Source: an uncultured Actinomycetes bacterium (lineage in GTDB: Bacteria; Actinomycetota; Thermoleophilia; RBG-16-64-13). Taken from it: a stretch of 64,000 bases of DNA. The stretch's first letter is position 1. Each line of letters starts with the position of its first letter. The notes below the pieces were generated by a model, which was not told the DNA's origin, did not search any database, and saw nothing but the letters and a program-made list of their open reading frames with translations. A program made the translations under genes and the position numbers. Below, piece by piece: positions 49,506 through 62,703 of this stretch. The stretch lies in assembly GCA_963841735.1 (NCBI GenBank), contig CAWJDT010000004.1, positions 320,001 through 384,000 on the forward strand, read 5' to 3'.

Positions 49506-51293
49506 CTACATGCTCTCCGGGGCACTCACCCCCAACAGGTCGAGACAACGGTGGATCACGTGGCGGGTGACCAGGCACAGCGCGAGACGCGATGCCGCCT
49601 CTTCGGAGGCCACTCCGATCACGCGGCAGTGCTTGTAGAACACATGGTAGTCGGCCGCCACTTCTTGAGCGTAGCCTGCGATGCGGTGCGGCGCTCGTCT
49701 CTCGGCCGAGTCCTGCACGACCGTGGAGAAGCTCTCCAGCCGTTTGATCAGCGCCCGCTCATAGGGCGACGCGAATACGGTGGGGCCCTCCGGCACCGCC
49801 GCCTCCATACCCTCGGGCACGTTGCGCACGATGCTGGCTATGCGGGCATGAGCGTACTGCACGTAGTACACCGGGTTGTCCGCCGACTGAGTCCGGGCAA
49901 GATCCAGATCCAGATCGAGCGTCTGGTCTTGAGAACGGGAGACCAAGAAGAACCGGGCCGCATCGACACCGATGGCCTCCACCAGTTCGCCCAAGGTGAC
50001 CATCTCTCCCCGGCGAGTGGACATCTGCCGCAACTCACCCTTCTCGAGAAGGGTGACCAGCTGCCCGATGATGACTTCCAACGTGCCCGGACGGCCAGAC
50101 AGGATCTCGACGGCTGCCATCATGCGCAGCACGTAGCCGTGATGGTCGGCGCCCCAGATGTTGACCAGATGGTCAAACCCGCGCTCGAGCTTATCCTCGT
50201 GATAGGCGATATCGGCGGCAAAATAGGTCGGGTGACCATTGGCGCGGACGAGTACGCGGTCTTTGTCGTCGCCCCGGGTGGTGGTACGGAGCCACACGGC
50301 TCCTCCTTCCCGAAAAGCTTCGCCCGACTCCAGGAGGCGTTCGACTACTTGAGCCAGCCGCCCGCCGGTGTGAAGGGCGGTCTCGCTAAACCAGCAGTCG
50401 AAGGTCACGCCGAACTTGTCGAGTTCCTCGCGCATCTCGTCGAGCATGGCGGCACAACCCTGCCCTCTGAAGAAGGCGACGGCCTCCTCCACCGCCGGCT
50501 CTACCGGCCAAACAGAGGCCTCCTCCGCCGGCTCCTCTTGGTCGGCCTCGTCCGGGACAACAGCTCCCTCCGCCACCCCGGCCACCTTTGCCGGCGGCAG
50601 ACTCTTGGTGAGCCCCTCCGCTGCGGAGACCAGCGCGCCCACGTAGCGGTCGCCCACCTGAGACCGGATAGCCTCGGCTATGCCGGCTACGTAGTCGCCC
50701 TGATACCCGTCGGCGGGAACAGGCAGGTCTATACCGAAAGACTGCGCATACCTGGCTGCGACGCTACGACCGAAACGGTCCATCTGCCGACCATAGTCGT
50801 TGATATAGAACTCGGTGGAGATATTCGCCCCGCTGAAGGCCATGAGCCGCTTCAGGGAGTCCCCGTATGCCGCGTAGCGACCGTGTCCCACATGCAGGGG
50901 CCCGTTGGGATTGACGCTGACGAACTCAAGGTTGACCCGAGGTGCGGGCCGAGCCGGACCACGCCCGATGTCGCCGGCCTGGGCGAGCATCTGCTTCATA
51001 GCTTCGGTGTACGCACCGACACTGAGCGTGAAGTTGAGAAACCCGGGGCCGGCCACCTCGATCTTGTCCACCAGCTTCGCGAACGCCGGATCGGCGGCAA
51101 GGCGCCTGCTAAGTTCCTCGGCCAGTTTGCGCGGCGGCTGCTTGACTGCCCGCGCCAACTGCATGCAGATGGGCGTAGCGTAGTCGCCGTGAGCTTCCTC
51201 GGCCGGGCGCTCCAACAAACACGCTGGCATATCCGTCCAACCCTGCTCCGCGGACCATTCCGCGACAACTCTCTGAAGCAATTCAGCCAGCAC
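49506..51293 (-). CDS. argS: arginine--tRNA ligase
   Basis: AGPGFLNF, EFVSVNPNGPLHVGH, WGADHHGY, MSTRRG and YVQYAHAR. Confidence 0.97.
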   Translation of the reverse strand: MLAELLQRVVAEWSAEQGWTDMPACLLERPAEEAHGDYATPICMQLARAVKQPPRKLAEELSRRLAADPAFAKLVDKIEVAGPGFLNFTLSVGAYTEAMKQMLAQAGDIGRGPARPAPRVNLEFVSVNPNGPLHVGHGRYAAYGDSLKRLMAFSGANISTEFYINDYGRQMDRFGRSVAARYAQSFGIDLPVPADGYQGDYVAGIAEAIRSQVGDRYVGALVSAAEGLTKSLPPAKVAGVAEGAVVPDEADQEEPAEEASVWPVEPAVEEAVAFFRGQGCAAMLDEMREELDKFGVTFDCWFSETALHTGGRLAQVVERLLESGEAFREGGAVWLRTTTRGDDKDRVLVRANGHPTYFAADIAYHEDKLERGFDHLVNIWGADHHGYVLRMMAAVEILSGRPGTLEVIIGQLVTLLEKGELRQMSTRRGEMVTLGELVEAIGVDAARFFLVSRSQDQTLDLDLDLARTQSADNPVYYVQYAHARIASIVRNVPEGMEAAVPEGPTVFASPYERALIKRLESFSTVVQDSAERRAPHRIAGYAQEVAADYHVFYKHCRVIGVASEEAASRLALCLVTRHVIHRCLDLLGVSAPESM

Positions 51294-51307
51294 CTGGGTC
51301 CTCTTCC

Positions 51308-52330
51308 CTATTCCTGTGTCTTCTTTGGAGCCCCGACGAGCTCCTCCAACTTGACTATCTCGGCCGGGGTTCCGATGGCAATGATCGTATCCCCCGGTTC
51401 GAGGATCACCTGTGGCGACGGATTGGAGTCAAAGGCCCCGCTCTGCCCGTGTCTAACCGCTAGAATGGTAGCTCCCGTCCGCTTCCGCACCGCCATGTCC
51501 TGTATAGACCGGCCGATGGCGCAGCATTGAGGGGTCAGTTTCAGCTCCTCCATGCGGAACTCGAGCTCACCGCCACTGGTGACTACATCGAGGTAGTCGC
51601 TGACCAACGGCTTCAGCATCAGAGTGGCCATCTGCTTCCCGCCGATCCCATAGGGAGACACCACACGGTCGGCGCCGGCCCGCTTAAGCTTGCTGACCGT
51701 GTCTTCAGACCCACCCCGGGCCACGATGAGCAGTTGTGGGTTCAGCACCCGAGCCGAGAGCGTTACATAGATGTTGCCCGCGTCGGACCCCACCGCTGTG
51801 ATCAGACCCCTGGCCCTCTCGATACCAGCCGCTTCCAGAGTCTCATCGGTCGTGGCATCGCCCCTCACCACCAAGAGACCGTCGGCCTCAGCCCGGGTGA
51901 GACTCTCAACGTCGTTATCGACGATCACGAAGCTCGCGTTGTGCGTCGCCAAATGACGGGCGACCGCTTCGCCCACACGACCGTAGCCGCAGATGACGTA
52001 GTGTCCCTCAAGCTTGTCCACCTTCTTCTTCACGACCCTCCTCCTATACGCCCCCGAGAGCTGGCCTCCCACGACAAACTCCACCATGGATCCGAGACCG
52101 TAGAGTATGGTACCGACTCCCCCGATGATCAGCACCAGTGTGAACACCCTCCCGGCCGTGGAAAGGGGTCGCACCTCCCGGAACCCCACCGTGGAGATGG
52201 TGGTCACGGTCATGTAGAAAGAATCCAGAGGCCCCCAACCCTCGATCAACATGTATCCGACCGTCCCTACGACCATGGCAGCGACTATCGCCGCCAGGAT
52301 CCTCAGCCCAGTCTTCGCCTCCCGGCTCAC
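51308..52330 (-). CDS. potassium channel protein with TrkA-N/TrkA-C (RCK) domains
   Basis: Two TM segments with TISTVGF filter, ICGYGRVG and a C-terminal TrkA-C domain. Confidence 0.92.
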   Translation of the reverse strand: MSREAKTGLRILAAIVAAMVVGTVGYMLIEGWGPLDSFYMTVTTISTVGFREVRPLSTAGRVFTLVLIIGGVGTILYGLGSMVEFVVGGQLSGAYRRRVVKKKVDKLEGHYVICGYGRVGEAVARHLATHNASFVIVDNDVESLTRAEADGLLVVRGDATTDETLEAAGIERARGLITAVGSDAGNIYVTLSARVLNPQLLIVARGGSEDTVSKLKRAGADRVVSPYGIGGKQMATLMLKPLVSDYLDVVTSGGELEFRMEELKLTPQCCAIGRSIQDMAVRKRTGATILAVRHGQSGAFDSNPSPQVILEPGDTIIAIGTPAEIVKLEELVGAPKKTQE

Positions 52331-52537
52331 CGGGTATCACCCCGAACGTCCGCGCAGTCAACATTTGTTTCGATCATGCTCGAATTCTAGCCCAAACCTC
52401 CGCTCAGCTCCCAAGAATGAAACGGCGCTTGACAGCGGTCGTGCCCACCCCCCACAATACCGGCAGGCCGCACCCGTGGCGACCGGGGACGGTGCTTCGT
52501 TGTTCGGAAAGGGCAACCGAGAGTCGGAGGAGTGCAT

Positions 52538-52825
52538 ATGCTCCATGAACCAGCACCCGCAGAAGTACACGGAGTAGAAGAGGCCGCTGCCTACAAACAG
52601 CGCCTCGGCTTGATCATGCTGGCTGTCTACGGTGTGATCTACATTGTCTTTATCATCCTCAACGTGGCAACGCCCAGAACAATGGGCACCCTGGTCGTCG
52701 GCGGTCTGAACCTCGCAATCGTCTTCGGCTTCGCCCTCATCGTGATCGCATTGGTGCTGGCCGTCGCTTACAACTGGGCGTGCACTCGTCACGAGAAGTC
52801 CTTCGAAACCGAGGAGAAGGCCTGA
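52538..52825 (+). CDS. DUF485 (YjcH-like) small membrane protein
   Basis: Two TM helices with NLAIVFGFALI..YN; GGAGGAG RBS; 1 nt upstream of the symporter. Confidence 0.82.
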   Translation: MLHEPAPAEVHGVEEAAAYKQRLGLIMLAVYGVIYIVFIILNVATPRTMGTLVVGGLNLAIVFGFALIVIALVLAVAYNWACTRHEKSFETEEKA

Positions 52826-52826
52826 C

Positions 52827-54762
52827 ATGGGAGAAGTCAAGACCTTGGCCGTCGTCATCTTCTTGGTGATCGTAGGTATCGTTCTCTTTGTATCGTTCTT
52901 CACCGCCCGCCGGGCCCGTTCCTCCAGCGGCTACTACGCTGCCGGCGGGCGCATCCACTGGGGCGTCAACGGTATCGCCTTCGCGGGTGACTACCTCTCG
53001 GCTGCTTCCTTCCTAGGCATCTGCGGCATGATCGCCGTAGCCGGTTACGATGGCTTTTTGTACTCCATCGGCTACCTCGCTGGATGGGTCGTAGCTCTGT
53101 TCGTCGTCGCAGAGCCCATGCGCCGCCTGGGAAGATACACCTTCACCGACGCCCTGGACGCCAAGTTCAACAAGCGTAGCCTCAAGCTCTGGGCGGCCAT
53201 CGCTACGCTCATCGTCTCGATCTTCTATCTGATTCCTCAGATGGTGGGCGCTGGGGTACTCATCGAGCCGCTGCTGGGCTTTCCGCACTGGGTGGGAGTG
53301 GTGCTAGTCGGAGCCATCGTTATCGCCATTGTGGCGACCGCCGGTATGACCTCCACTACGTACGTCCAGTTCATCAAGGGCTCACTGCTCATCAGTATTC
53401 GCGTTGGTTATCGTCGTAGCCCTCTGCGTCCGCGGTCTATCGACCTCTCCGGACCAAGGTGGCCGAGTCCCCTTCTATGACTACAAGACCATTACGGCGA
53501 CAACCGACACAAACGGCGCGATAGTGCCCGAGGACACCTCATACCAGGTTGTCGGGCAGCAGGCTCAGACCATCAAGGGCAAGGAAGTCACCTTCGTCAA
53601 GCTGTCGAAGGACGGCATGGCTACCTGGTGGAAGGCCGACACCGCCAATGACGTCGTGGCTCTGCACGAGACGCAGGAAGTGGTGACCCTGGCGGATGGG
53701 ACCAAGTACATCAACGGAGCTCCAGAGTCCAAAGACAACAAGCTCAGGCTGGTCGGCAACCTGAGCGCCATCGACGGCCAGACCGCGGTACAGACAGGGG
53801 CGATCAACCCCTTCCGGTTCCTTGCCCTGATCGGCGACCCGGACACCACCATCAACCTCTGGAAGTCGACGTCCTTCAAGGATGGTGGGGACAGCGTGTC
53901 CGTTTACTACTCCGTCTCGGTCGCGGGTGACACCGTCGCTCGACCGGGGCAGTCGTTCAAACTCGAGGGATCGTGGACCGACAAGGTGGACTTCATCTCC
54001 CTCATGATCGCGCTGTTCCTGGGCACCGCGTCATTGCCGCACATCCTCATCCGCTACTACACAGTCCCCAGTCAACGGGCAGCTCGCAAGTCTACTGTGG
54101 TCGCAATCGCAGCCATCGGGTTCTTCTACATCCTCACCTTGTTCCTGGGCCTCGGCGCCATGTCGAGCTCCACGGTGAACCCGCTGGACAACAACATGTC
54201 CGCGCCGCTCTTGGCGGAGTCGTTCGGCACCTTCCTGTTCGCGATGATCTCGGCCATCGCCTTTGCGACTGTGCTGGGCACTGTCAGCGGTCTCATCATC
54301 GCCGCCTCCGGCGCTGTGGCGCACGACCTGCTCGACCGCTTCGGCGGCCACATCAAGAACGACAAGCAGAAGGTCTACGCCGGCCGCATCGCCGCATTCG
54401 TGGTGGGGGCGGTCGCCATCCTGTTGGGTATCGCTTTCCAGGGCATCAACGTCTCGTTCTTGGTGGGCTTGGCATTCGCGGTCGCCGCGTCGGCCAACCT
54501 GCCCTGCATCATCATGATGCTGTTCTGGAAGCGCACCACCTCAAAAGGCATGGTCGCCTCGATCATCGTGGGAATCGTCGTCTCGGTGGGCATCATCCTC
54601 TTTTCGCCCACCGCTTGGGAACTCTACGGCCTCAACCCGGCCGACGCCCCGCTCCCACTCAAGAACCCGGGCATCGTATCTATCCCCGCGAGCTTCCTCG
54701 CCATCTACCTGGTGTCGAAGCTGACCAAGCCGGACATGCTGGAGGAGCACGCCAAGGCGTAG
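52827..54762 (+). CDS. actP: cation/acetate symporter ActP (sodium:solute symporter family), one apparent frameshift near 53400
   Basis: NGIAFAGDYLSAASFLGI, YLIPQMVGAG, LGTASLPHILIRYYTV, AFATVLGTVSG and AASANLP. Confidence 0.9.
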
Positions 54763-54798
54763 CGTCTACCAGCGCCGAGGAGCGCATGTCGCTCAACA

Positions 54799-54841
54799 AA
54801 GAAAGCCGCCGGATGCTCGTTCGCATCCGGCGGCTTTTCCT
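54799..54841 (+). terminator. intrinsic terminator after actP
   Basis: AAAGCCGCCGGATGC..GCATCCGGCGGCTTTT. Confidence 0.8.
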
Positions 54842-54889
54842 CTGCCCGGGCCGGCCCGCTATGCGGCCGGCCCGGTTGTATAAAGCGTC

Positions 54890-55947
54890 CTAGAATACGT
54901 CTTTCGCCTTCAGCGGGTAGCCGGTGTAGCCGGCCGTCGCGTAGTAGACGGCTCTATCGAAGAACCGTCCCAGTTCGCGGTTCAGATCGACTGCTCGCTG
55001 TAGGTCCATGGCCGACTCCCACACTCCGTGGGTGCGGGCCGTCATCCAGACTTCCCTCTTCAGCAGCAAGATCGCGCTGACCAGTTCCGGCAGTGGCAGA
55101 CCCTGGGCAGCCCTCGTCTCGCCCAGCTTGTGAAACCATTCGCCGAGGTTCTGATCGGAGGGTTGGCCGCCGAAGTACTGGCCCACTTGACTGAGCGCGA
55201 ACTCGCTCGCGTTCACCAGCTCCTCGTCCGACACGACTCCGTACGACGGTGTCTGTGAGCTGGCCCTAAGGTCCTGAAGCCACAGCCGAGCGATCTCTTC
55301 TCCGTAGCTGTCGACGAATCCCTTAGGCAAACGGCTGATCGGGCCCAGCGGGAGCACCACTCGTCTGAACACTTCGTTGATCGTCTGCGCGCAAGCAGCG
55401 TAGACGGCGGACAGACCGGTGAGTATGCCCTCCCAGCCGGCGATCTTGCCCCAGTACGGCTCCCCCGCCGAAGTCGCGGATGGCCAGCAGGAAGAACAGG
55501 ATCGTAAGCAGACCGAATACCACCTGCAATGCCCGGTTGAGCTTCAACGTACCTATGAACATGTAGGCCGTGAAGACACCCCAGGCAACGAAGAACCAGG
55601 CCATAGCCATTTCGCTCGGAGCGGCGGCTTGTTTGGCATCGGGGAACATACCGGGCATCAGCCAGAGAGCGACCAACGTCAGCCAGAAGAAGCCCGTAGG
55701 AGGTGAAGGCCAGCGTTCCGAACGTGTTGTTCTTGCGATACTCCATGATCCCGGCGATAACCTGTGCGATGCCGCCATAGAAGATGCCCATGGCTAGGAT
55801 CATGCTGCTCAGCCCGAAGAAGCCCGCGTTGTGGATGTTGAGCAGAATTGTCGTCAGGCCAAACCCCATAAGGCCGAGTGGCGCGGGATTGGCGTTGGTA
55901 TCCAGCAGTTTGGTAACCGTTTCGTTAGAACTGATCGAGGTGGCCAT
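54890..55947 (-). CDS. satP: SatP/YaaH (GPR1/FUN34) acetate uptake channel fused to a C-terminal helical RsbRD-N-like domain; apparent frameshifts near 55695 and 55450
   Basis: [24 protein letters not shown]...FTSYG and FFW; the last helix [27 protein letters not shown] continues in frame for about 150 further aa. Confidence 0.83.
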
Positions 55948-56132
55948 ATGCCCTCTTTCTCCCTGCCCTTGCTGCAGGATGGTCGGATTGTCATCGGTCA
56001 CGGGCATCTAGAAACCACGCTCAGGCGCCCGGACCGGCGGACAATATACCGGCCATCCGCACCCCCTTGTCTACTGCAGCCCTGTTTCTTGTAGAATGAC
56101 TGCACGTTCTTGGCCCGCTCTTCGAGGATCAA

Positions 56133-56952
56133 GTGATCGAGACAATCAGGGTCGACCTGCACTGTCATTCGTCAATGAGCGATGGAGATCATGCGCCCGC
56201 GTACGTCGCCCATTCGATCGCCGCGATAGGAGCCGTCTGGGCGTCTCTGACCGACCACAATACCCTCTCCGGACAACCGCAGTTCCGAGCCGTGCTCGAA
56301 AGACGGGGACTCAATTCCGTCGTCGGATTAGAGATGGACGCGCGCTCACCCGCCGGAGTGCTGCATCTGCTGGGATACGGGCTCGACCAGCACAACGAAG
56401 CTCTGCTCGACGCGCTGCGCACGCTCCGCCAGCCCTGGCGCACTTCGGCCCGCCATTGGTTCGAGCAGGGCCCACTCGCTTGCCGACGCGCCCCTTCCTC
56501 GCCCGCGTCTCCGACGGGCCAGGCCGGAAAGCGACACAGGTCCGCCGCGACCGCCTACCACCGCGGAGGCCATCGATCTCATCCACGAGGCCGGCGGCCT
56601 CGTGTTCCTGGCCCACCCGCTGGCGGGTATCGACACCATTGCTAGCGCTCGAGGAGGCGCTGACTTCGCTGCAGCCCGAGGGGCTGGACGGGCTTGAAGC
56701 GTTCTCACAAACAGTACCGGCCGGAGACACAGGATGCGCTGCTCGAGGTCGCTGAGCGCCGAGAGTCTTCTCACCGTGGGCGGCAGCGATTTTCACGGCG
56801 TACATCACTCCGATGGAGGTAGCCCCGGGGTCGACATGCCCCTGATACACTGGAGGCAATTTATGGCTGCACTCGGGATAGGGCCACAAGAGGCCCTTCC
56901 CACTCCCTATCCAGACCGGGTCACTGCACAAAGGGGGCATGATGGAGACTAG
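56133..56952 (+). CDS. PHP-domain phosphoesterase (TrpH/YciV-like), apparent frameshifts
   Basis: DLHCHS..SDG, LTDHNT, HLLGY, IHEAGG..FLAHP, GLDGLE and GGSDFHG. Confidence 0.85.
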
Positions 56953-59922
56953 CAGGCGCTCGACGGGCAAGTGGCTACCGCAGAGATGGTCAAGCTTCGT
57001 CATCCGGATCGTGCTGCCGGCGGTGCTGGCAGTGGTGCTTTTCATCCTGGCAGTCTTCCTTATCCTCATCCCTTCGGTCGAGCGTGAGTTGCTCGACGGT
57101 AAGAAGGAAACCACCCAGGAGCTGACCCGCGCCGCAGTCAGTATCGTCAATGAGTACTACGCCGAGGAGACTGCCGGGAGCATGACCCGGGAGCAGGCCC
57201 AAACGCGAAGCCGCCGCCCGCGTCGAACTGCTGCGTTACGGCGATGAGGGCAAGGACTACTTCTGGATCACCGACACGCATCCGACCATGGTGATGCACC
57301 CCTACTTGCCGGAGCTCAACGGCCAGGACCTCACCGACTATGAAGACCAACGCGGCAAGAAGCTCTTCGTCGCCTTCGTCGACGCCGTACGCGAGAACGG
57401 CTCCGGTTTCGTCGACTACTACTGGCAGTGGAAAGACGATCCGGACCGCATAGTGCCCAAGCTGTCATACGTTGAGGAGTTCAAGCCCTGGCAGTGGGTC
57501 ATAGGCACGGGCATCTACGTCGAAGATGTCAACGCCGCCATCGCCCGCGTGCAGCGGTACTTGACCTACATCTCCCTGGCCATCGCCGCCGCCATCGCTC
57601 TACTCCTTCTGTACGCGGCACGGCAGAGCCTCAAGATCGAGAAACGCAGAGCCACTGCCGAGCAGGGGCTCAAAGAATCCAACGAGAAGTACCAGGCCCT
57701 GGTGGCCGCTGCTACCGAAGGCATCATCATGACTCTCGACGGCAAATGCGCCTACGCCAATAAGCCCTTGCACGACATGCTGGGATACGAAGCGCACGAA
57801 CTCGCCGACATGATCCTGTCACTGCTGGTGGTGAACGAGAACCCCGGCGGACCAGCAAGCTCTGAACTACATCCAGGCCCTGGCTGCCACCGGTACACGC
57901 ACGCCGGCCGACTCAACTGCCTCCCCCCACTTTCGAGGCCCGGTTTAGAGCCAAGGACGGTCGCGCCGTCGACGTGCTGCTCACGGCGACGCCCATCTCA
58001 CTTGCCGGCAAAGAAGGCGTGATCCTGATGGCCCGCAGCCTCATCGGACAGAAGGCCATGGAGGCCGCCTTCGACGAAACGCGGCGGCAGTTCCTGACCA
58101 TGTCCGACGCTCTCAGCCTGGGAGTGTTCCGCAGCACCTGGGGCCGCAAAGCCACCCTCGTCGAGGCCAACCCAGCCATGCGCGGCATCCTGCAGCTCGC
58201 CCCCACCGCCGACATGGCTGCCTCCGACTGGCTCGACAAGATCATCGACACCGACGAACGCAGCGCCCTGGTGGACCGTCTCAACAAGGACAAGGTCGTG
58301 CAGGACTACCGGGTAGGCCTGTGGAGGGCGGACGGCACACGTACCGACATCTCCCTCTTCGCCGTTCTTGTGGACGACGAGAGCGGGCAGCCTCGCTTCT
58401 GCGACGGCATCGTGGAAGACATCACCAAGCAGACCAAGGGTGAACACGAGCGCGAGGCACTGATCGCTCAGTTACAGACGTCGCTCTTCTACCTACGCGA
58501 GCCCGTGACCCGAGCGGTCAGTCCCGCCGTGTCGGTGGACATGACCGAGACCGTGCGCAGGGCGGCTGCTCTAATGACCAAGAGCCGCGCCGGAGCCGTG
58601 TTCGTTATGGGCCCGGACAACGACGTGGTGGGCATCGTCACCGACTTCGACTTCCGCGTGCGAGTGGTGGCCGAGAACCTTGATCTCGGCACCTCGGTGC
58701 GTGCCATCATGACCGCCCCGGTAGACTCCATCTCCGAAGACGCTCCTGTTTACGAGGCCCTGCTCAAGATGCGAGAGCGCAACGTGGAGCACCTCGCAGT
58801 CACAAGACGAGTCGGGCGCTATCACAGGCGTTCTTCGGCTCCGGGATCTTGTCCAGTACCAGGAATCATCCTCGGTAATCATCACCGACTCGATCAAGCG
58901 GGCGACCTCGCTCGAGCAGATTAGCAGAGGCACACGACAGACTACCCGCGTTGATCAAGGCCGTGGTCGATTCCGGCGCCGATACCCGCTACGTCAACAG
59001 GATCGTCTCCGGAGTCGCCGACGGCGTGGTACAGAGACTCGTAGGGATGGCTCTGGATGAACTGGGGCCCGCGCCGGTGCCCTTCGCCTTCCTCACCCTG
59101 GGCAGTGAAGGCCGCGAAGAGCAGACGCTCCTCACCGATCAGGACAACGCTCTCCTATACGACGACCCACCGAACGAGAGGGTCGAGGAGACCGCAGCCT
59201 ACTTCCTCTCGCTTGGCACCTGGGTCTGCGACCGCCTCGATCAATTGGGATACCAGTACTGTGAAGGCGGGGTCATGGCAAAGAACCCCCGCTGGAACCT
59301 TTCGCGCTCGGTTTGGCGGCAGCAGTTCTCCCACTGGATCCACAACGCCGATCCACAGGAGCTGCTTGAGCTCAACATGCTCTTCGACTTCCGCTGCGTC
59401 GCCGGACAGCAACAGTTCGCCCGCGAGCTACGCACCTGGGTGTTCGACGAGATGCAGGCCTATCAGCTGTTCTTCATACATTTCGCGCAGAACGCCTTGC
59501 TCTACAAACCGCCCATCAACCTGCTGGGGCACATCCAGACCACCTCTTCCGAAGAAGGCACCAAGACGCTCAGCCTCAAAGAGGCTCTCTTGCCGGTGGT
59601 CAACTTCGCGCGTCTCTATGCTTTGCGTCAGCGCATAGACTCTACCAACACCCTGGACCGCCTAGCCGAGTTGAGAGAGCGGGGAGTCCTGGGCCGTGAG
59701 TCTTACGAGCAGATCGTGCCTGACTACGAGACCCTCATGAGCATCAGGCTGCGCCGGCAGGCCATCGCCATCGAAGAGAATCGCAAGCCCACCAACCTGA
59801 TCTCTCCCAGCGAGCTCTGACCTCTGCCGAGGAAGCCAGGCTGAAGCGCCTGTTCGCTCTGGCCGAGAGATCTGCGCAAGAAGATCAGCTACGACTTCTT
59901 GGGTGGCATCGCCGGCTTCTAG
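56939..59922 (+). CDS. membrane receptor: TM-sCache_2-TM-PAS-PAS-CBS pair-DUF294 nucleotidyltransferase-DUF294_C; several apparent frameshifts
   Basis: YFWITD..MVMHP..PKLSYV..PWQWVIGTGIY (sCache_2), YANK and EANPA PAS starts, GIVTDFD.R CBS, and LGSEGREEQ...TDQDNA..GGVMAKNPRW..FDFR (DUF294). Ends DFLGGIAGF-stop at 59922. Confidence 0.82.
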
Positions 59923-59990: not shown

Positions 59991-60044
59991 GTGAGCTCAC
60001 CGACGCTCCGAGTGACTCCGCGCCTTACGTCGCCCCGCCGGGCC

Positions 60045-60899
60045 TCAGCCCTCGCGTCGCCGCCCGCGCCTGTACTTCCAGAGCAAGCCTCTGCCCGGGG
60101 CGAACAGGAACGCCAGTACGAAGATGGCAGTAGCCACGAGCACCATGGCCCCGCTGGGCGCCACGCCCAGGTAGTAGCTCGCGTAGAGCCCTCCTACCGC
60201 CGACATCGCGCCGATCAAGCGCCGACACCGCCATCATGACCGGCAGGCGACGGGTGAGCAGATACGCCGCGGCCGGAGGAGTCACCAGCATGGCAGTCAC
60301 CAGAGCCACCCCCACGGTGCGCAGCGCCACCACGATGGTGGCCGCGATCATCAGGAAGAGCCCGGTCCGCAAGCCGTGGGTGCTGAGACCCAGCGTCTCC
60401 CCCAGGATCGGATCGAAGGACATCACCAGCAGCCGCCTATAGAGGAGCACTATCGATACCAAGATCGCGAGGGCGAGCCCGCCGCTCACCCATAGGTCCG
60501 ACGCGGTGACCCCCAGCACGTTGCCAAAGAGCACATGGGCGAGATCCACCGCATAAGTACTCATGGTGCTGATCAGCACGACGCCAAGCGCAAGGGCGGC
60601 CGCGAAGAAGATGCCGATAGCCGTGTCTTCTCGGATCGTCCCCGCTCGCGAGACGAAGCTTATGCCCACACGCCACCAGCACCCCGGCGATGAGCGCGCC
60701 CACCAGGAGGTTCGCGCCCACCGAGATAGGCCACGGCCACACCGGGCAGTATGGCGTGGGCCAGCGCATCGCCCAAGAACGCCATCGAACGTAGCACGAT
60801 GTAGCAGCCGATGACGGCGCAGACCACACCGACTATGAGCGAGGCGATCAAGGCCTTCTGCATGAACGCCAGGGCGAAGGGCTCGGTCAGCCAGTTCAT
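60045..60899 (-). CDS. Mn/Zn/Fe ABC transporter permease (ABC-3), apparent frameshifts
   Basis: VLRSMAFLGDALAHAILPGVA, EDTAIGI, LFGNVLG and LVTPPAAA. Confidence 0.88.
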
Positions 60900-60912
60900 G
60901 CTCGCCGTCCCT

Positions 60913-61759
60913 TCACGGCCGCCGCTCGCCTTCAGACGCGCCCGGCTCGTCACACACGTCGCACCGGCAACTGTCGACGGCTCCCACCGGACCGTGTCCG
61001 CCGCAGCACTGGTCGACCACTATGGCCTTACCGTCCACCACCATCATCTGCCCGCCGAACGCCTGCTGCAGGTGCTGCTCGGTGAAGACCTGCGCGGGGC
61101 TCCCGGCGCTGATGAGCCGGCCGTTCAGCAGGATCACCTCGTCGAACCTCCCGGAGGCCAGGTCGAGATCGTGCGTGGAGACCAGGACTGTTACCGAGCG
61201 GGCGCGCAGAGCCGGCCACCAAGCTCCAGAGTGGCCTCGCGCGTGGCCATATCCACCCCGGTGAAAGGCTCGTCGAGAAGAAGCACGTGCGGCTCCTGCA
61301 CCAGCGCCCGGGCAAGGAACGCCCTCTGCTGCTGACCGCCCGGACAGCTCGCCTATGGGCCGCTTGGCCAGACCGGCGATATCCAGGCGTTCCAGGCTCT
61401 CGTGGACGAGCCTCCTGTCGGTGACCGAGAGCCGCTTGAGCCAGCGCCCCCGGCCGTACCGACCCATGGCCACCACGTCGAACACGGTCACCGGGAAGCG
61501 CCAGTCGACCTCCTCCTTCTGCGGCACGTATGCCACCGGATCGCGGCGGGCATCCGAGCGGGCGACCGTGGATGAGGATCTTACCGGTGCGCATGGGCAC
61601 CAGCCCGACGATGGCTTTGAACAAGGTCGATTTGCCCGCTCCGTTCGGCCCGATGACCGCCGCCTGGGATCCGTGCGCCAAGCTGAGCGAGACCGACTGA
61701 AGCGCGGGTCGGTCGCCGTAGTACACGCTGACGTCGTGCAGCTCGAGCACTCCGGTCAT
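60913..61759 (-). CDS. Mn/Zn/Fe ABC transporter ATP-binding protein, apparent frameshifts
   Basis: [41 protein letters not shown] and STHDL. Confidence 0.9.
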
Positions 61760-62703
61760 CGCAAAGCCTCGACTATCCGCTGGACGTTCCACCGCATCAT
61801 GTCCAAGTAGGTGGCCGCGTTCTCTCCCAGGGAATGGGTGTAGAGGTCGGTGACCACCTTCACCCCCGTCTCCCGGGCCACCTGTTGGGCCAGCGAGTCG
61901 TTGCTGCCGGTCTCCAGGAATATCGCGGGCGCCCCAGTCGCACGGATGGCCCCGATGAGGTCGGACAGCTGTCGGGCCGACGGACTCCCTTCGCCGGAGG
62001 TCGTGGCGAAGATCGTTCCTACCAGGTCGAACCCGTAGCGTGAGGTGAACCGCCCAAAGCTCTCATGATTGGTCACCAAGAGCCGCCGCTCGGCCGGAAT
62101 GGTATCTACCTGCATGACGATCCAGGCATCAAGCTCCCGCAGCGCCGACTGGTAGATAGCCGCATTGGCTCGATACACCTCGGCCCCAGCGGGATCGATG
62201 GTGATCAAGCCCTCTGCAATGTCGTCCACGGACGCCACCACGCTCAAGGGATCGAGCCAGAAGTGCGGGTCCTCATCTATGCCGGAAAGACCGGCGGAGG
62301 CGTCGATAACCGGAACGCCGGACTCCGCAGCTCCTGAGACCAACTCATCCACGGTGGGTATCAGTCCCGGCGCGCCGATGACCACGCCCTCAGCCTCGAC
62401 CACCCTCTTCGCGTCCTTGGGGGTGGGTTCAAACGAATGCGGGTCGGCGCCTGAGGGTACGATCGCCGAGACCGTCATCCGCTCGCCGGCGACGTTCTGC
62501 ACAATGTCCGCGAGGAAGGTGGTGTCGGCCAGCACCGACAGTTTTCCGTCGGCAGTCCCCCCGCCTCCTACCTGGCCGCCGCCGTCGTTTGCGCACCCCG
62601 CCGCACCCCAAATGAACATGAGCACCACGGCGAACGCCGCCGCTAGCGCGCGGCGCGGCGCACTCAGCCACCTGCCTGTGTTCTGGTCGCGCTGGCCCGT
62701 CAC
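61756..62703 (-). CDS. metal ABC transporter substrate-binding lipoprotein (TroA/MntC/ZnuA cluster A-I)
   Basis: Lipobox AAGC, DPHSFEP, DPHFWLDP, TNHESF and YLDMMRWN. Confidence 0.93.
   Translation of the reverse strand: MTGQRDQNTGRWLSAPRRALAAAFAVVLMFIWGAAGCANDGGGQVGGGGTADGKLSVLADTTFLADIVQNVAGERMTVSAIVPSGADPHSFEPTPKDAKRVVEAEGVVIGAPGLIPTVDELVSGAAESGVPVIDASAGLSGIDEDPHFWLDPLSVVASVDDIAEGLITIDPAGAEVYRANAAIYQSALRELDAWIVMQVDTIPAERRLLVTNHESFGRFTSRYGFDLVGTIFATTSGEGSPSARQLSDLIGAIRATGAPAIFLETGSNDSLAQQVARETGVKVVTDLYTHSLGENAATYLDMMRWNVQRIVEALR

Follow-up and report, generated by a model that had tools for sequence, protein, structure and literature searches.

The closest described counterpart of the system treated here is the COG2905 gene pair of Pseudomonas (PP_0354/PP_0353, PA3233/PA3232, Pflu5625). 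In the papers on this pair, a CBS-DUF294 gene, an exonuclease gene and actP are linked, and the strongest targets of CrbS/R (MxtR/ErdR) include the gene for the cyclic nucleotide monophosphate (cNMP)-CBS-nucleotidyltransferase (NTase) protein and the adjacent RNase_T gene, together with yjcH-actP and acs (PMC5715377, PMC9927547, bioRxiv 10.64898/2026.09.07.749794). The same 2017-2026 papers describe DUF294/COG2905 proteins as being without known activity. We describe a five-gene cassette on a 64,000-nucleotide stretch of an uncultured actinobacterial genome (contig CAWJDT010000004.1; the whole stretch is called the window below), which encodes a DUF485 protein, an SSF symporter, a SatP channel with a C-terminal sensor-globin, a PHP phosphoesterase and a transmembrane receptor ending in DUF294. 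This cassette is a variant of the unexplained COG2905 and exonuclease pair of the Pseudomonas acetate regulon. An earlier note, made from the sequence of the window alone, had stated that CBS-DUF294 genes recur next to actP, usually with an exonuclease-like gene, and for Pseudomonas this adjacency is indeed in print.

The two systems have the CBS pair, DUF294 and DUF294_C in common, and also a phosphodiesterase-type partner and a connection with yjcH-actP or short-chain acid metabolism. They differ in input and in partner. The Pseudomonas protein receives its input through a cytoplasmic cNMP-binding domain, whereas the receptor described here has a transmembrane sCache_2 domain and two PAS domains, and no match to PF00027. 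The partner in Pseudomonas is an adjacent RNase_T/DnaQ-like protein, while here it is a PHP phosphoesterase (a metallophosphoesterase in other phyla) that is usually fused to the receptor. In contrast to the CrbS/R regulon, no CrbS/R-type kinase was seen in the window locus. No paper on Cache or PHP forms of the DUF294 receptor was found in the literature searched, supplements not being covered. Compared to the classical form, the Cache/PHP form adds a ligand predicted from a complete pocket, a fused partner enzyme, which is a sign that the two activities belong together, and an occurrence next to carboxylate symporters over a very broad phylogenetic range.

We propose, with what we consider an even chance of being right, that the locus is an accessory cassette for the sensing and controlled uptake of C2-C3 monocarboxylates (acetate, propionate, pyruvate, glycolate), acting via protein tagging with a nucleoside monophosphate (NMP). 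Carboxylate outside the cell, together with adenylate or other ligands on the PAS and CBS domains inside, would set the activity of the NTase. The NTase would place NMP on an uptake or assimilation protein, candidates being the DUF485/SSF symporter, Acs or, in the clade of the window, SatP-globin. The PHP phosphoesterase would hydrolyse the NMP tag, and the outcome would be fast post-translational control of carboxylate import. Nucleotidylation, its reversal by PHP and the choice of target are steps that we infer. Of the acetate sensing and uptake control postulated in the earlier note, computation supports the carboxylate pocket, the GlnE/DrrA-like transferase, the esterase partner and the linkage to a symporter, but not the SatP tail as a general target.

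A wider version of the proposal is possible, if rather doubtful: the cassette may represent a one-protein transmembrane route whose output is nucleotidylation, and not phosphorylation or a cyclic nucleotide. An acetate-type signal outside would become a removable NMP tag or a nucleotide signal on the uptake machinery, with writer and eraser in one receptor, and in the clade of the window a Nudix-type SatP tail would read it and gate the channel. If true, this would give a first function to DUF294/COG2905 enzymes and define a new receptor class, and confirmed protein nucleotidylation would be a new bacterial coupling of an extracellular nutrient signal to transporter activity. It would also bear on the turnover of short-chain fatty acids in sediments, digesters and guts, the home of these uncultured lineages. 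New from the window are the split and coupled PHP, the polymorphism of the five-gene cassette and the probable Nudix origin of the SatP tail.

The receptor and its nucleotidyltransferase module

The listing of open reading frames (ORFs) and the Pfam searches bear out all five genes of the earlier note, in position as well as in domain content. Since most of them are interrupted in the window assembly (see below), intact orthologues from a relative (genome G012, locus L014) stand in for the window proteins in all protein-level work. The receptor gene (56939..59922, plus strand) encodes, by Pfam and over four listed ORFs, the succession transmembrane helix, sCache_2, transmembrane helix, PAS, PAS, CBS pair, DUF294 and DUF294_C. 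In the intact orthologue of 990 aa, transmembrane helices at residues 23-41 and 207-225 enclose the Cache domain, and the two PAS domains, the CBS pair, DUF294 and DUF294_C all follow the second helix. The receptor is thus almost certainly a protein that spans the membrane twice.

The periplasmic sCache_2 domain (window ~57095..57557, plus strand) reaches 143 bits in the orthologue (cut-off 25), and its closest solved relatives are Adeh_3718 (4K08, E 1.8e-35) and PscD (5G4Y, E 3e-33). According to the source, 4K08 was crystallised with acetate, the ligands of PscD are glycolate, acetate, propionate and pyruvate, and in PscD the ligand is held by Y90, H103, Y143 and K156, sandwiched by W92 and W145, and backed by F126 (PMC5062169). 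All seven PscD contacts are identical in the HMMER alignment, Y106, W108, H119, F142, Y159, W161 and K173 of the orthologue corresponding to Y90, W92, H103, F126, Y143, W145 and K156, and the seven residues are invariant in 15 of 15 diverse homologues. The window's own copy displays the DYFW...MHP motif and Y..W..K in its ORF. In NCBIfam the sensor part scores best with MctS, a monocarboxylate sensor kinase, at 88.1 bits versus a cut-off of 700. The domain in all likelihood has the complete carboxylate pocket of known acetate and propionate sensors and is predicted to be a sensor of C2/C3 carboxylates, in line with the premise of the earlier note that such domains bind short carboxylates.

The sCache_2 chemoreceptors PscD (5G4Y/5G4Z), Adeh_3718 and McpP have the same seven pocket residues as the receptor. 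Their output is a methyl-accepting chemotaxis protein signalling domain, whereas here it is a nucleotidyltransferase. The systems MctS/MctR with MctP, and CrbS/CrbR with actP/acs, likewise place a carboxylate sensor beside, or in control of, an SSF monocarboxylate permease. Unlike these, the cassette contains neither a histidine kinase nor a response regulator, and control would therefore be post-translational and not transcriptional.

The output module comprises a CBS pair (Bateman module; Pfam CBS twice; window ~58532..58865, plus strand) placed directly before DUF294 and DUF294_C (~58939..59895, plus strand; Pfam E 1.4e-45 and 5.9e-31). Scores for PF03445 and PF10335 are above cut-offs, at 155 and 107.7 bits for the window piece and 160 and 125.8 bits for the intact orthologue. 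No variation was found at the NTase residues G719, S720, D731, D733 and D814 in any of 15 homologues, nor at the same positions in module numbering (G205, S206, D217, D219 and D300) in any of 50 sequences. The motifs G-S-x-G-R-x-E-Q-T-L-x-T-D-Q-D-N and F-D-F-R are invariant and present in the window ORF at 58951-59820.

An AlphaFold2 model of CBS-DUF294-DUF294_C, built with 50 sequences, reached pLDDT 92.4 and pTM 0.75. The first non-CBS matches found with Foldseek were GlnE-N (1V4A, E 3.2e-9), DrrA (6YX5) and GlnE-C (3K7D). A search independent of Foldseek gave the same three among the matches listed, 1V4A at Z 27.0 (308 aa, rmsd 2.9 A), 3K7D at Z 25.6 and 6YX5 at Z 24.5; the remaining matches were CBS pairs only, with no other NTase class among the 50 listed. 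Residues 1-130 of the model resemble CBS pairs that bind AMP, ATP or SAM (Z 14-19). At the sequence level the DUF294 part had no match in a search of the PDB, and no GlnE or GlnD model of Pfam or NCBIfam was among the matches of the intact orthologue at E <= 0.01. The NTase is, on the strength of motifs and model, most probably catalytically intact and of GlnE/DrrA-type fold, which agrees with the nucleotidyltransferase premise of the earlier note.

GlnE-N, GlnE-C and DrrA all nucleotidylate proteins, and it is mainly for this reason that protein tagging is ranked above the alternatives. The fold that combines an NTase with a helical substrate domain is common to GlnE, GlnD, DrrA and the receptor module. 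The concept is alike as well, a writer under the control of a sensor being paired with an eraser that works by hydrolysis or phosphorolysis; GlnD carries an HD eraser domain. The receptor module differs in that it has only 11-13% identity to these enzymes, lies outside the GlnE/GlnD families, is membrane-anchored and has a PHP as the putative eraser. The helical DUF294_C domain is, by its Pfam clan, the counterpart of the substrate-binding domain of GlnE/GlnD (PMC3710099).

Partner enzyme and symporter across phyla

The PHP gene (56133..56942, plus strand; exact stop uncertain) belongs to the COG0613 or TrpH-YciV type and has a Pfam PHP match. The orthologue of 268 aa scores 34.6 bits with PF02811 (cut-off 26.4), and its best NCBIfam matches are 3',5'-nucleoside bisphosphate phosphatase (100.8 bits, cut-off 400) and RNase RNM (77.7 bits, cut-off 375). 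The closest solved sequences are 3E0F, 2YB1 (the pAp phosphatase Cv1693), 9ETK and 7UG9 (a 5'-3' exoribonuclease). Nine metal ligands (H10, H12, D17, H42, E67, H78, H160, D217 and H219) do not vary over the 11 sequences compared, of which one is a standalone PHP and ten are the N-termini of fusions. A PHP domain with nine metal-binding residues, the mark of COG0613-type enzymes such as Cv1693 and RNase AM/RNM, is thus present, whereas the scores of the window-type PHP are far under the equivalog level of those enzymes. The end of the PHP gene overlaps the receptor start in an ATGA at 56939-56942, preceded by AAGGGGG, and the same overlap is present in L014. From this arrangement, PHP here is with little doubt split from the receptor and translationally coupled to it.

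A homologue search with the CBS-DUF294 part gave 1241 proteins at E <= 1e-10 among 8000 scored candidates. Among the best 120 of the 1241, sCache_2 was found in 111, and 25 had PF02811 in the same polypeptide (~1190-1256 aa). Species-representative genomes were also scanned, and the best 80 loci of 564 relatives, all from metagenome-assembled genomes (MAGs) of ~20 phyla, were analysed further; neighbouring ORFs were clustered without prior labels, and all frames were scored with HMMs from those clusters. PHP was in the same open frame as the receptor in 29 of the 80 loci and a separate upstream gene in four (L020-22 and L024, the close kin of the window). A metallophosphoesterase abutted the receptor on the same strand in 23 loci and was fused to it in one (L074), and a Pfam scan of the flanks added four more (L035, L057, L081 and, partial, L060). 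This family thus takes the place of PHP in 28 loci, and an esterase of any kind is present in 61. The flanks of the 18 loci that were esterase-less by the first filter held those four metallophosphoesterases, the rest being SnoaL, lipocalin, TPR, AP_endonuc_2 and the like. RNase_T was found in 3 of the 80 loci, only at a distance.

PHP dominates in Actinomycetota, Chloroflexota, Acidobacteriota, Planctomycetota, Verrucomicrobiota, Spirochaetota and Armatimonadota, and the metallophosphoesterase in Bacteroidota, Ignavibacteria, Chlorobi and delta-proteobacterial lineages. With the RNase_T protein of Pseudomonas, three unrelated phosphodiesterase folds therefore share a single slot next to the same NTase, and no other observation speaks more strongly for a common substrate of NTase and esterase. 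The pairing of PHP and NTase assumed in the earlier note is reflected in the 29 fusions and in the invariant metal ligands. PHP appears, with good support from these loci, to be an obligatory partner of the receptor, fused to its N-terminus in most lineages.

An SSF symporter is present in 60 of the 80 loci and a DUF485 or DUF4212 small subunit in 55. Restricted to the 43 loci whose flanks both extend over 4 kb or more, the numbers are 39 for the symporter and 34 for an esterase. The symporter lies upstream or downstream and on the same or the opposite strand, giving four arrangements over ~20 phyla, and its linkage to the receptor has thus survived rearrangement. By the counts of co-occurrence, the combination of genes goes well past what chance would give. 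In the window, the symporter gene (52827..54762, plus strand) matches PF00474 in two pieces and two frames, with a change near 53396-53398, and is preceded by the gene for the small YjcH-like DUF485 membrane protein (52532..52825, plus strand, alternative ATG at 52538; PF04341 45.3 bits, cut-off 28). DUF485 proteins are the usual partners of ActP-type symporters. The intact symporter orthologue (657 aa) reaches the SSF superfamily in Pfam (231.7 bits), and its best NCBIfam matches are MctC (442.8 bits) and then ActP (424.6 bits), both below cut-offs; it is short of the equivalog level, at 442.8 versus 670 for MctC and 353 versus 1099 for the ActP model TIGR02711. Between two transmembrane helices it carries an acidic, beta-rich insert of ~185 aa (residues 215-403 of the L014 ActP, window ~53440-54000). 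The insert had no Pfam match, and its best score in the ESM Atlas was 0.80, under the useful range. SSF symporters of at least 600 aa made up 34 of the 56 receptor-linked partners. AcsA, another candidate target, is intact elsewhere in the window's genome (1001 bits).

Two further genes recur near the receptor. A conserved protein of ~413 aa without a Pfam family is encoded with receptor and symporter at L039:7860-9101 and at 17 other Bacteroidota, Ignavibacteria and Chlorobi loci; one member has a weak match to the outer-membrane protein DcaP (E 8e-4), and the protein may be a carboxylate porin of diderm lineages. In 7 of the 80 loci (L020:15582-16313, L021, L022, L036, L041, L057 and L081), a Crp/Fnr-type regulator (cNMP_binding and HTH_Crp_2) is encoded less than 3 kb away from the receptor; none was noted beside the window cassette.

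The SatP-globin fusion and the target of the pair

The satP gene (54890..55947, minus strand) encodes a channel part (~55355-55947), with PF01184 (AceTr) in two frames, and a C-terminal tail (~54893-55354), an RsbRD_N-like piece of 160 aa; the gene runs through three frames overall. Intact orthologues are 351-358 aa long. The channel part scores 246.7 bits with the NCBIfam model AceTr_1 (cut-off 50), and residues 17-203 of the model match Citrobacter SatP (5YS3) at Z 27.4 and 56% identity, with the six-helix channel fold of SatP/YaaH. Residues 219-351 match pXO2-61 (3PMC, Z 11.7), MtR (3ZTA, Z 10.0) and the N-domain of RsbR (2BNL, Z 8.3), as well as globin-coupled sensors at about Z 10, the best matches being non-haem and haem sensor globins; the tail model has a pLDDT of only 55-87, and helical folds readily give middling Z. 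Scores with RsbRD_N (PF14361, cut-off 24.3) were 23.9 bits for the window piece, 19.4 for L014 and 25.3 for L021, and a sequence search of the PDB gave no match to the tail at E <= 1. On the model, the tail is real and has a sensor-globin fold, like the non-haem sensor globins. In contrast to SatP/YaaH and to stressosome globins, channel and globin are fused here, there is no STAS domain, and the nearest kin of the tail are the tails of Nudix hydrolases.

A search with the tail led to 98 clusters; apart from three lower-ranked partials (P0216-P0218), each is a SatP fusion of ~351 aa with a tail identity of at least 56%. Wherever a source is named, it is a MAG of Actinobacteria or Thermoleophilia. 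When 1.84 billion representatives were searched with a tail profile, 609 relatives came up at E <= 0.001, of which a single representative was a SatP fusion. Most of the relatives are stand-alone proteins of 145-190 aa, and in 9 of the 17 longer or top relatives that were scanned the domain forms the C-terminal part of a Nudix hydrolase. The tail is probably a clade-specific, haem-free ligand sensor recruited to the channel, probably taken over from regulators of Nudix hydrolases and gating the channel from the cell interior. It would make the SatP-globin fusion a rare case of a regulated acetate channel. The earlier note had put forward a transporter or its appended domain as the target of nucleotidylation. 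As a general target the SatP tail fails: it is limited to one narrow actinobacterial clade and the receptor occurs in ~20 phyla. Co-folding of the CBS-NTase module with the tail (residues 205-358) gave a score of 0.00 against a mark of 0.32, which is evidence neither way.

One relative of the tail is encoded in the window's own genome (L108:907-1893, equal to G000:C1 ~492406-493392). This 328-aa protein consists of Zn_ribbon_Nudix, NUDIX and an RsbRD_N-like sensor globin that is 34% identical to the SatP tail; its architecture marks it as a putative ligand-regulated Nudix hydrolase, and similar ORFs of ~340 aa are present in nearly all genomes of the family. A conserved tyrosine of the SatP tail is common to this Nudix-fused paralogue, while a conserved histidine is not. 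The tyrosine, in the 'TPSY' loop, was considered as a SatP-specific tagging site and ruled out, as it is invariant in the paralogue as well. Haem binding via the histidine is unlikely, the paralogue having a glutamine in its place.

Growth data from Pseudomonas putida bear on the proposed tagging of an uptake protein. As reported, mutants in the exonuclease, yjcH and actP-I genes were impaired on pyruvate and the NTase mutant was not, whereas on propionate the NTase and exonuclease mutants were impaired and the yjcH and actP-I mutants were not (PMC5715377, PMC9927547, bioRxiv 10.64898/2026.09.07.749794). An inhibitory tag on uptake that can be taken off again would predict the pattern seen on pyruvate. 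The propionate pattern counts against the proposal: the transporter is not the sole target, the simple logic of a writer and an eraser acting on ActP fails there, and the pattern shows a target set that is wider or different. Several other points weigh on the same side. Fold likeness to GlnE and DrrA does not fix the substrate class. The nearest solved relatives of PHP act on nucleotides or RNA (a pAp phosphatase, a 5'-3' exoribonuclease), a kinship with which a protein-NMP substrate agrees no better than a nucleotide or RNA would. No esterase was seen in 19 of the 80 loci, nine of which have at least 4 kb on both sides; moreover, these loci are mutually related, were chosen by likeness of the receptor and were scored with HMMs partly derived from the same loci. 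Biochemical data on a DUF294 protein were not found in the literature searched.

As an alternative, no protein would be tagged, and the NTase and phosphoesterase would make and break a free nucleotide signal (a cyclic or linear oligonucleotide, or a modified nucleotide) read, for example, by the CBS pair, the transporter or the SatP tail. This is unlikely, but several points speak for it: the nearest relatives of PHP act on pAp and short RNA, the alternative partners are an RNase_T exonuclease and a metallophosphoesterase, and the closest kin of the SatP tail are C-terminal modules of nucleotide-handling Nudix hydrolases, 9 of 17 tested having a NUDIX domain. The RNase_T and metallophosphoesterase families are rich in nucleases and cyclic-nucleotide phosphodiesterases. 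The P. putida genetics fit a free signal equally well. What speaks for the tagging of a protein instead is that the protein AMPylators GlnE-N, GlnE-C and DrrA are nearest (Z 24-27) among the matches listed, that no enzyme of the cGAS, OAS or CD-NTase type is among the 50 listed, though these are mostly CBS pairs, and the relation of DUF294_C to the substrate-binding domain of GlnE/GlnD (PMC3710099).

RNA is a further conceivable substrate of the pair: the NTase could add a 3' tail to an mRNA or sRNA of the carboxylate regulon, a nuclease-type partner could trim it, and the two together would set transcript stability. The Pol-beta superfamily takes in poly(A) polymerases and CCA-adding enzymes, and the partners are RNase_T-like or RNase AM-like. 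Degradation of mRNA by PP_0353 has been put forward as a speculation (PMC9927547). We nevertheless hold an action on RNA to be quite improbable, given that the Pfam scan of the receptor returned no RNA-binding domain, that among the matches listed the fold is nearest to GlnE and DrrA and not to poly(A) polymerases or CCA-adding enzymes, and that a small calcineurin-like metallophosphoesterase replaces the nuclease in 28 loci. The genes might also have no common mechanism and merely travel together. PHP would then be a housekeeping enzyme, either a pAp phosphatase or RNase AM, while the receptor would control a process other than transport. PHP does score as a COG0613-type enzyme, and the five genes are contiguous within the family, so that their co-occurrence in 8 of 41 genomes (see below) could amount to block inheritance. 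Such an explanation is already disfavoured and has very little chance of being right: 29 of 80 loci have PHP and receptor as an in-frame fusion and 25 of the 120 best homologues contain PF02811, another esterase family fills the slot where PHP is missing, the SSF symporter stays near through four gene orders and ~20 phyla, and PHP is far below the housekeeping equivalog cut-offs (100.8 versus 400, 77.7 versus 375).

The cassette in its genome and in close relatives

None of the four larger cassette genes (ActP, SatP, PHP and the receptor) is a single open frame in the window assembly. Searches by tblastn with intact orthologues located at least ten frame changes in 7.4 kb: one in ActP, two in SatP (near 55690 and near 55450-55470), at least one in PHP (between 56540 and 56760) and at least six in the receptor (near 57205, 57850-57914, 58803-58820, 58921, 59817 and 59875). 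Taken by itself, such a density would suit a set of decaying pseudogenes in the host organism. Against decay stands above all rpoB, which in the same genome but outside the window (G000:C1:122993-126436) runs over three reading frames with several frame changes, so that indel errors throughout the assembly and fragmented gene calls genome-wide are to be expected. The ABC-3 permease and ABC ATPase genes beside the cassette (60015-61759) are frame-shifted as well, the genome, in 8 contigs, is 89.7% complete, and the conserved motifs of the window copy are all retained between the shifts. Decay is therefore a most improbable reading. In six relatives every cassette gene is one open frame, except for a split ActP in G002, with lengths from stop to stop of 669-685 aa for ActP, 353-382 for the SatP fusion, 259-281 for PHP and 985-1044 for the receptor. 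On these comparisons, the frame changes are read as sequencing or assembly indels and not as decay of the locus.

The distribution of the cassette in close kin was followed in 41 genomes of the same class, with E <= 1e-140 defining a close receptor orthologue and an identity of at least 76% an ActP orthologue. The receptor orthologue, the full-length SatP-globin and the ActP orthologue are found in exactly the same 8 of the 41 genomes, the window's genome included. In the other family members SatP comes only in the plain form, ~200 aa long and with 55-60% identity to the channel part. Seven receptor-less relatives were compared at the same site. There, ArgRS is followed by a TrkA-type K+ channel (in 5 of the 7, not in L100 and L107) and then by plain satP in opposite orientation, and DUF485, ActP, PHP and the receptor are absent. 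ABC-3, ABC ATPase and ZnuA were matched after satP in 4 of the 7 (L100-L103); L105 has a short ZnuA match only, and in L106 and L107 the contig ends right after satP. The cassette thus behaves like a single unit that can be exchanged as a whole, and it brings the only ActP-type symporter found with the window-type query in the kin genomes. Linkage in other genomes, by which the earlier note proposed to judge its reading, is borne out by these eight genomes, though within the family block inheritance alone could explain it.

In the window, the cassette is flanked on one side by ArgRS and a K+ channel gated by TrkA-N/TrkA-C, both open (49506-52330, minus strand), and is directly followed on the other by a metal uptake operon of ABC-3 permease, ABC ATPase and a ZnuA-type binding protein (60015-62703, minus strand). 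Between the divergent satP-globin and PHP genes lies an intergenic region (55948..56132) with promoter-like blocks. Three blocks are conserved over 12 orthologous regions, GACA[AC]TATAC, TTGTC[CT]AC and TTCTTGTAGAATG. We infer from their resemblance to -35/-10 elements that they may serve as promoters for both operons; the TTGTCCAC block could also be an operator.

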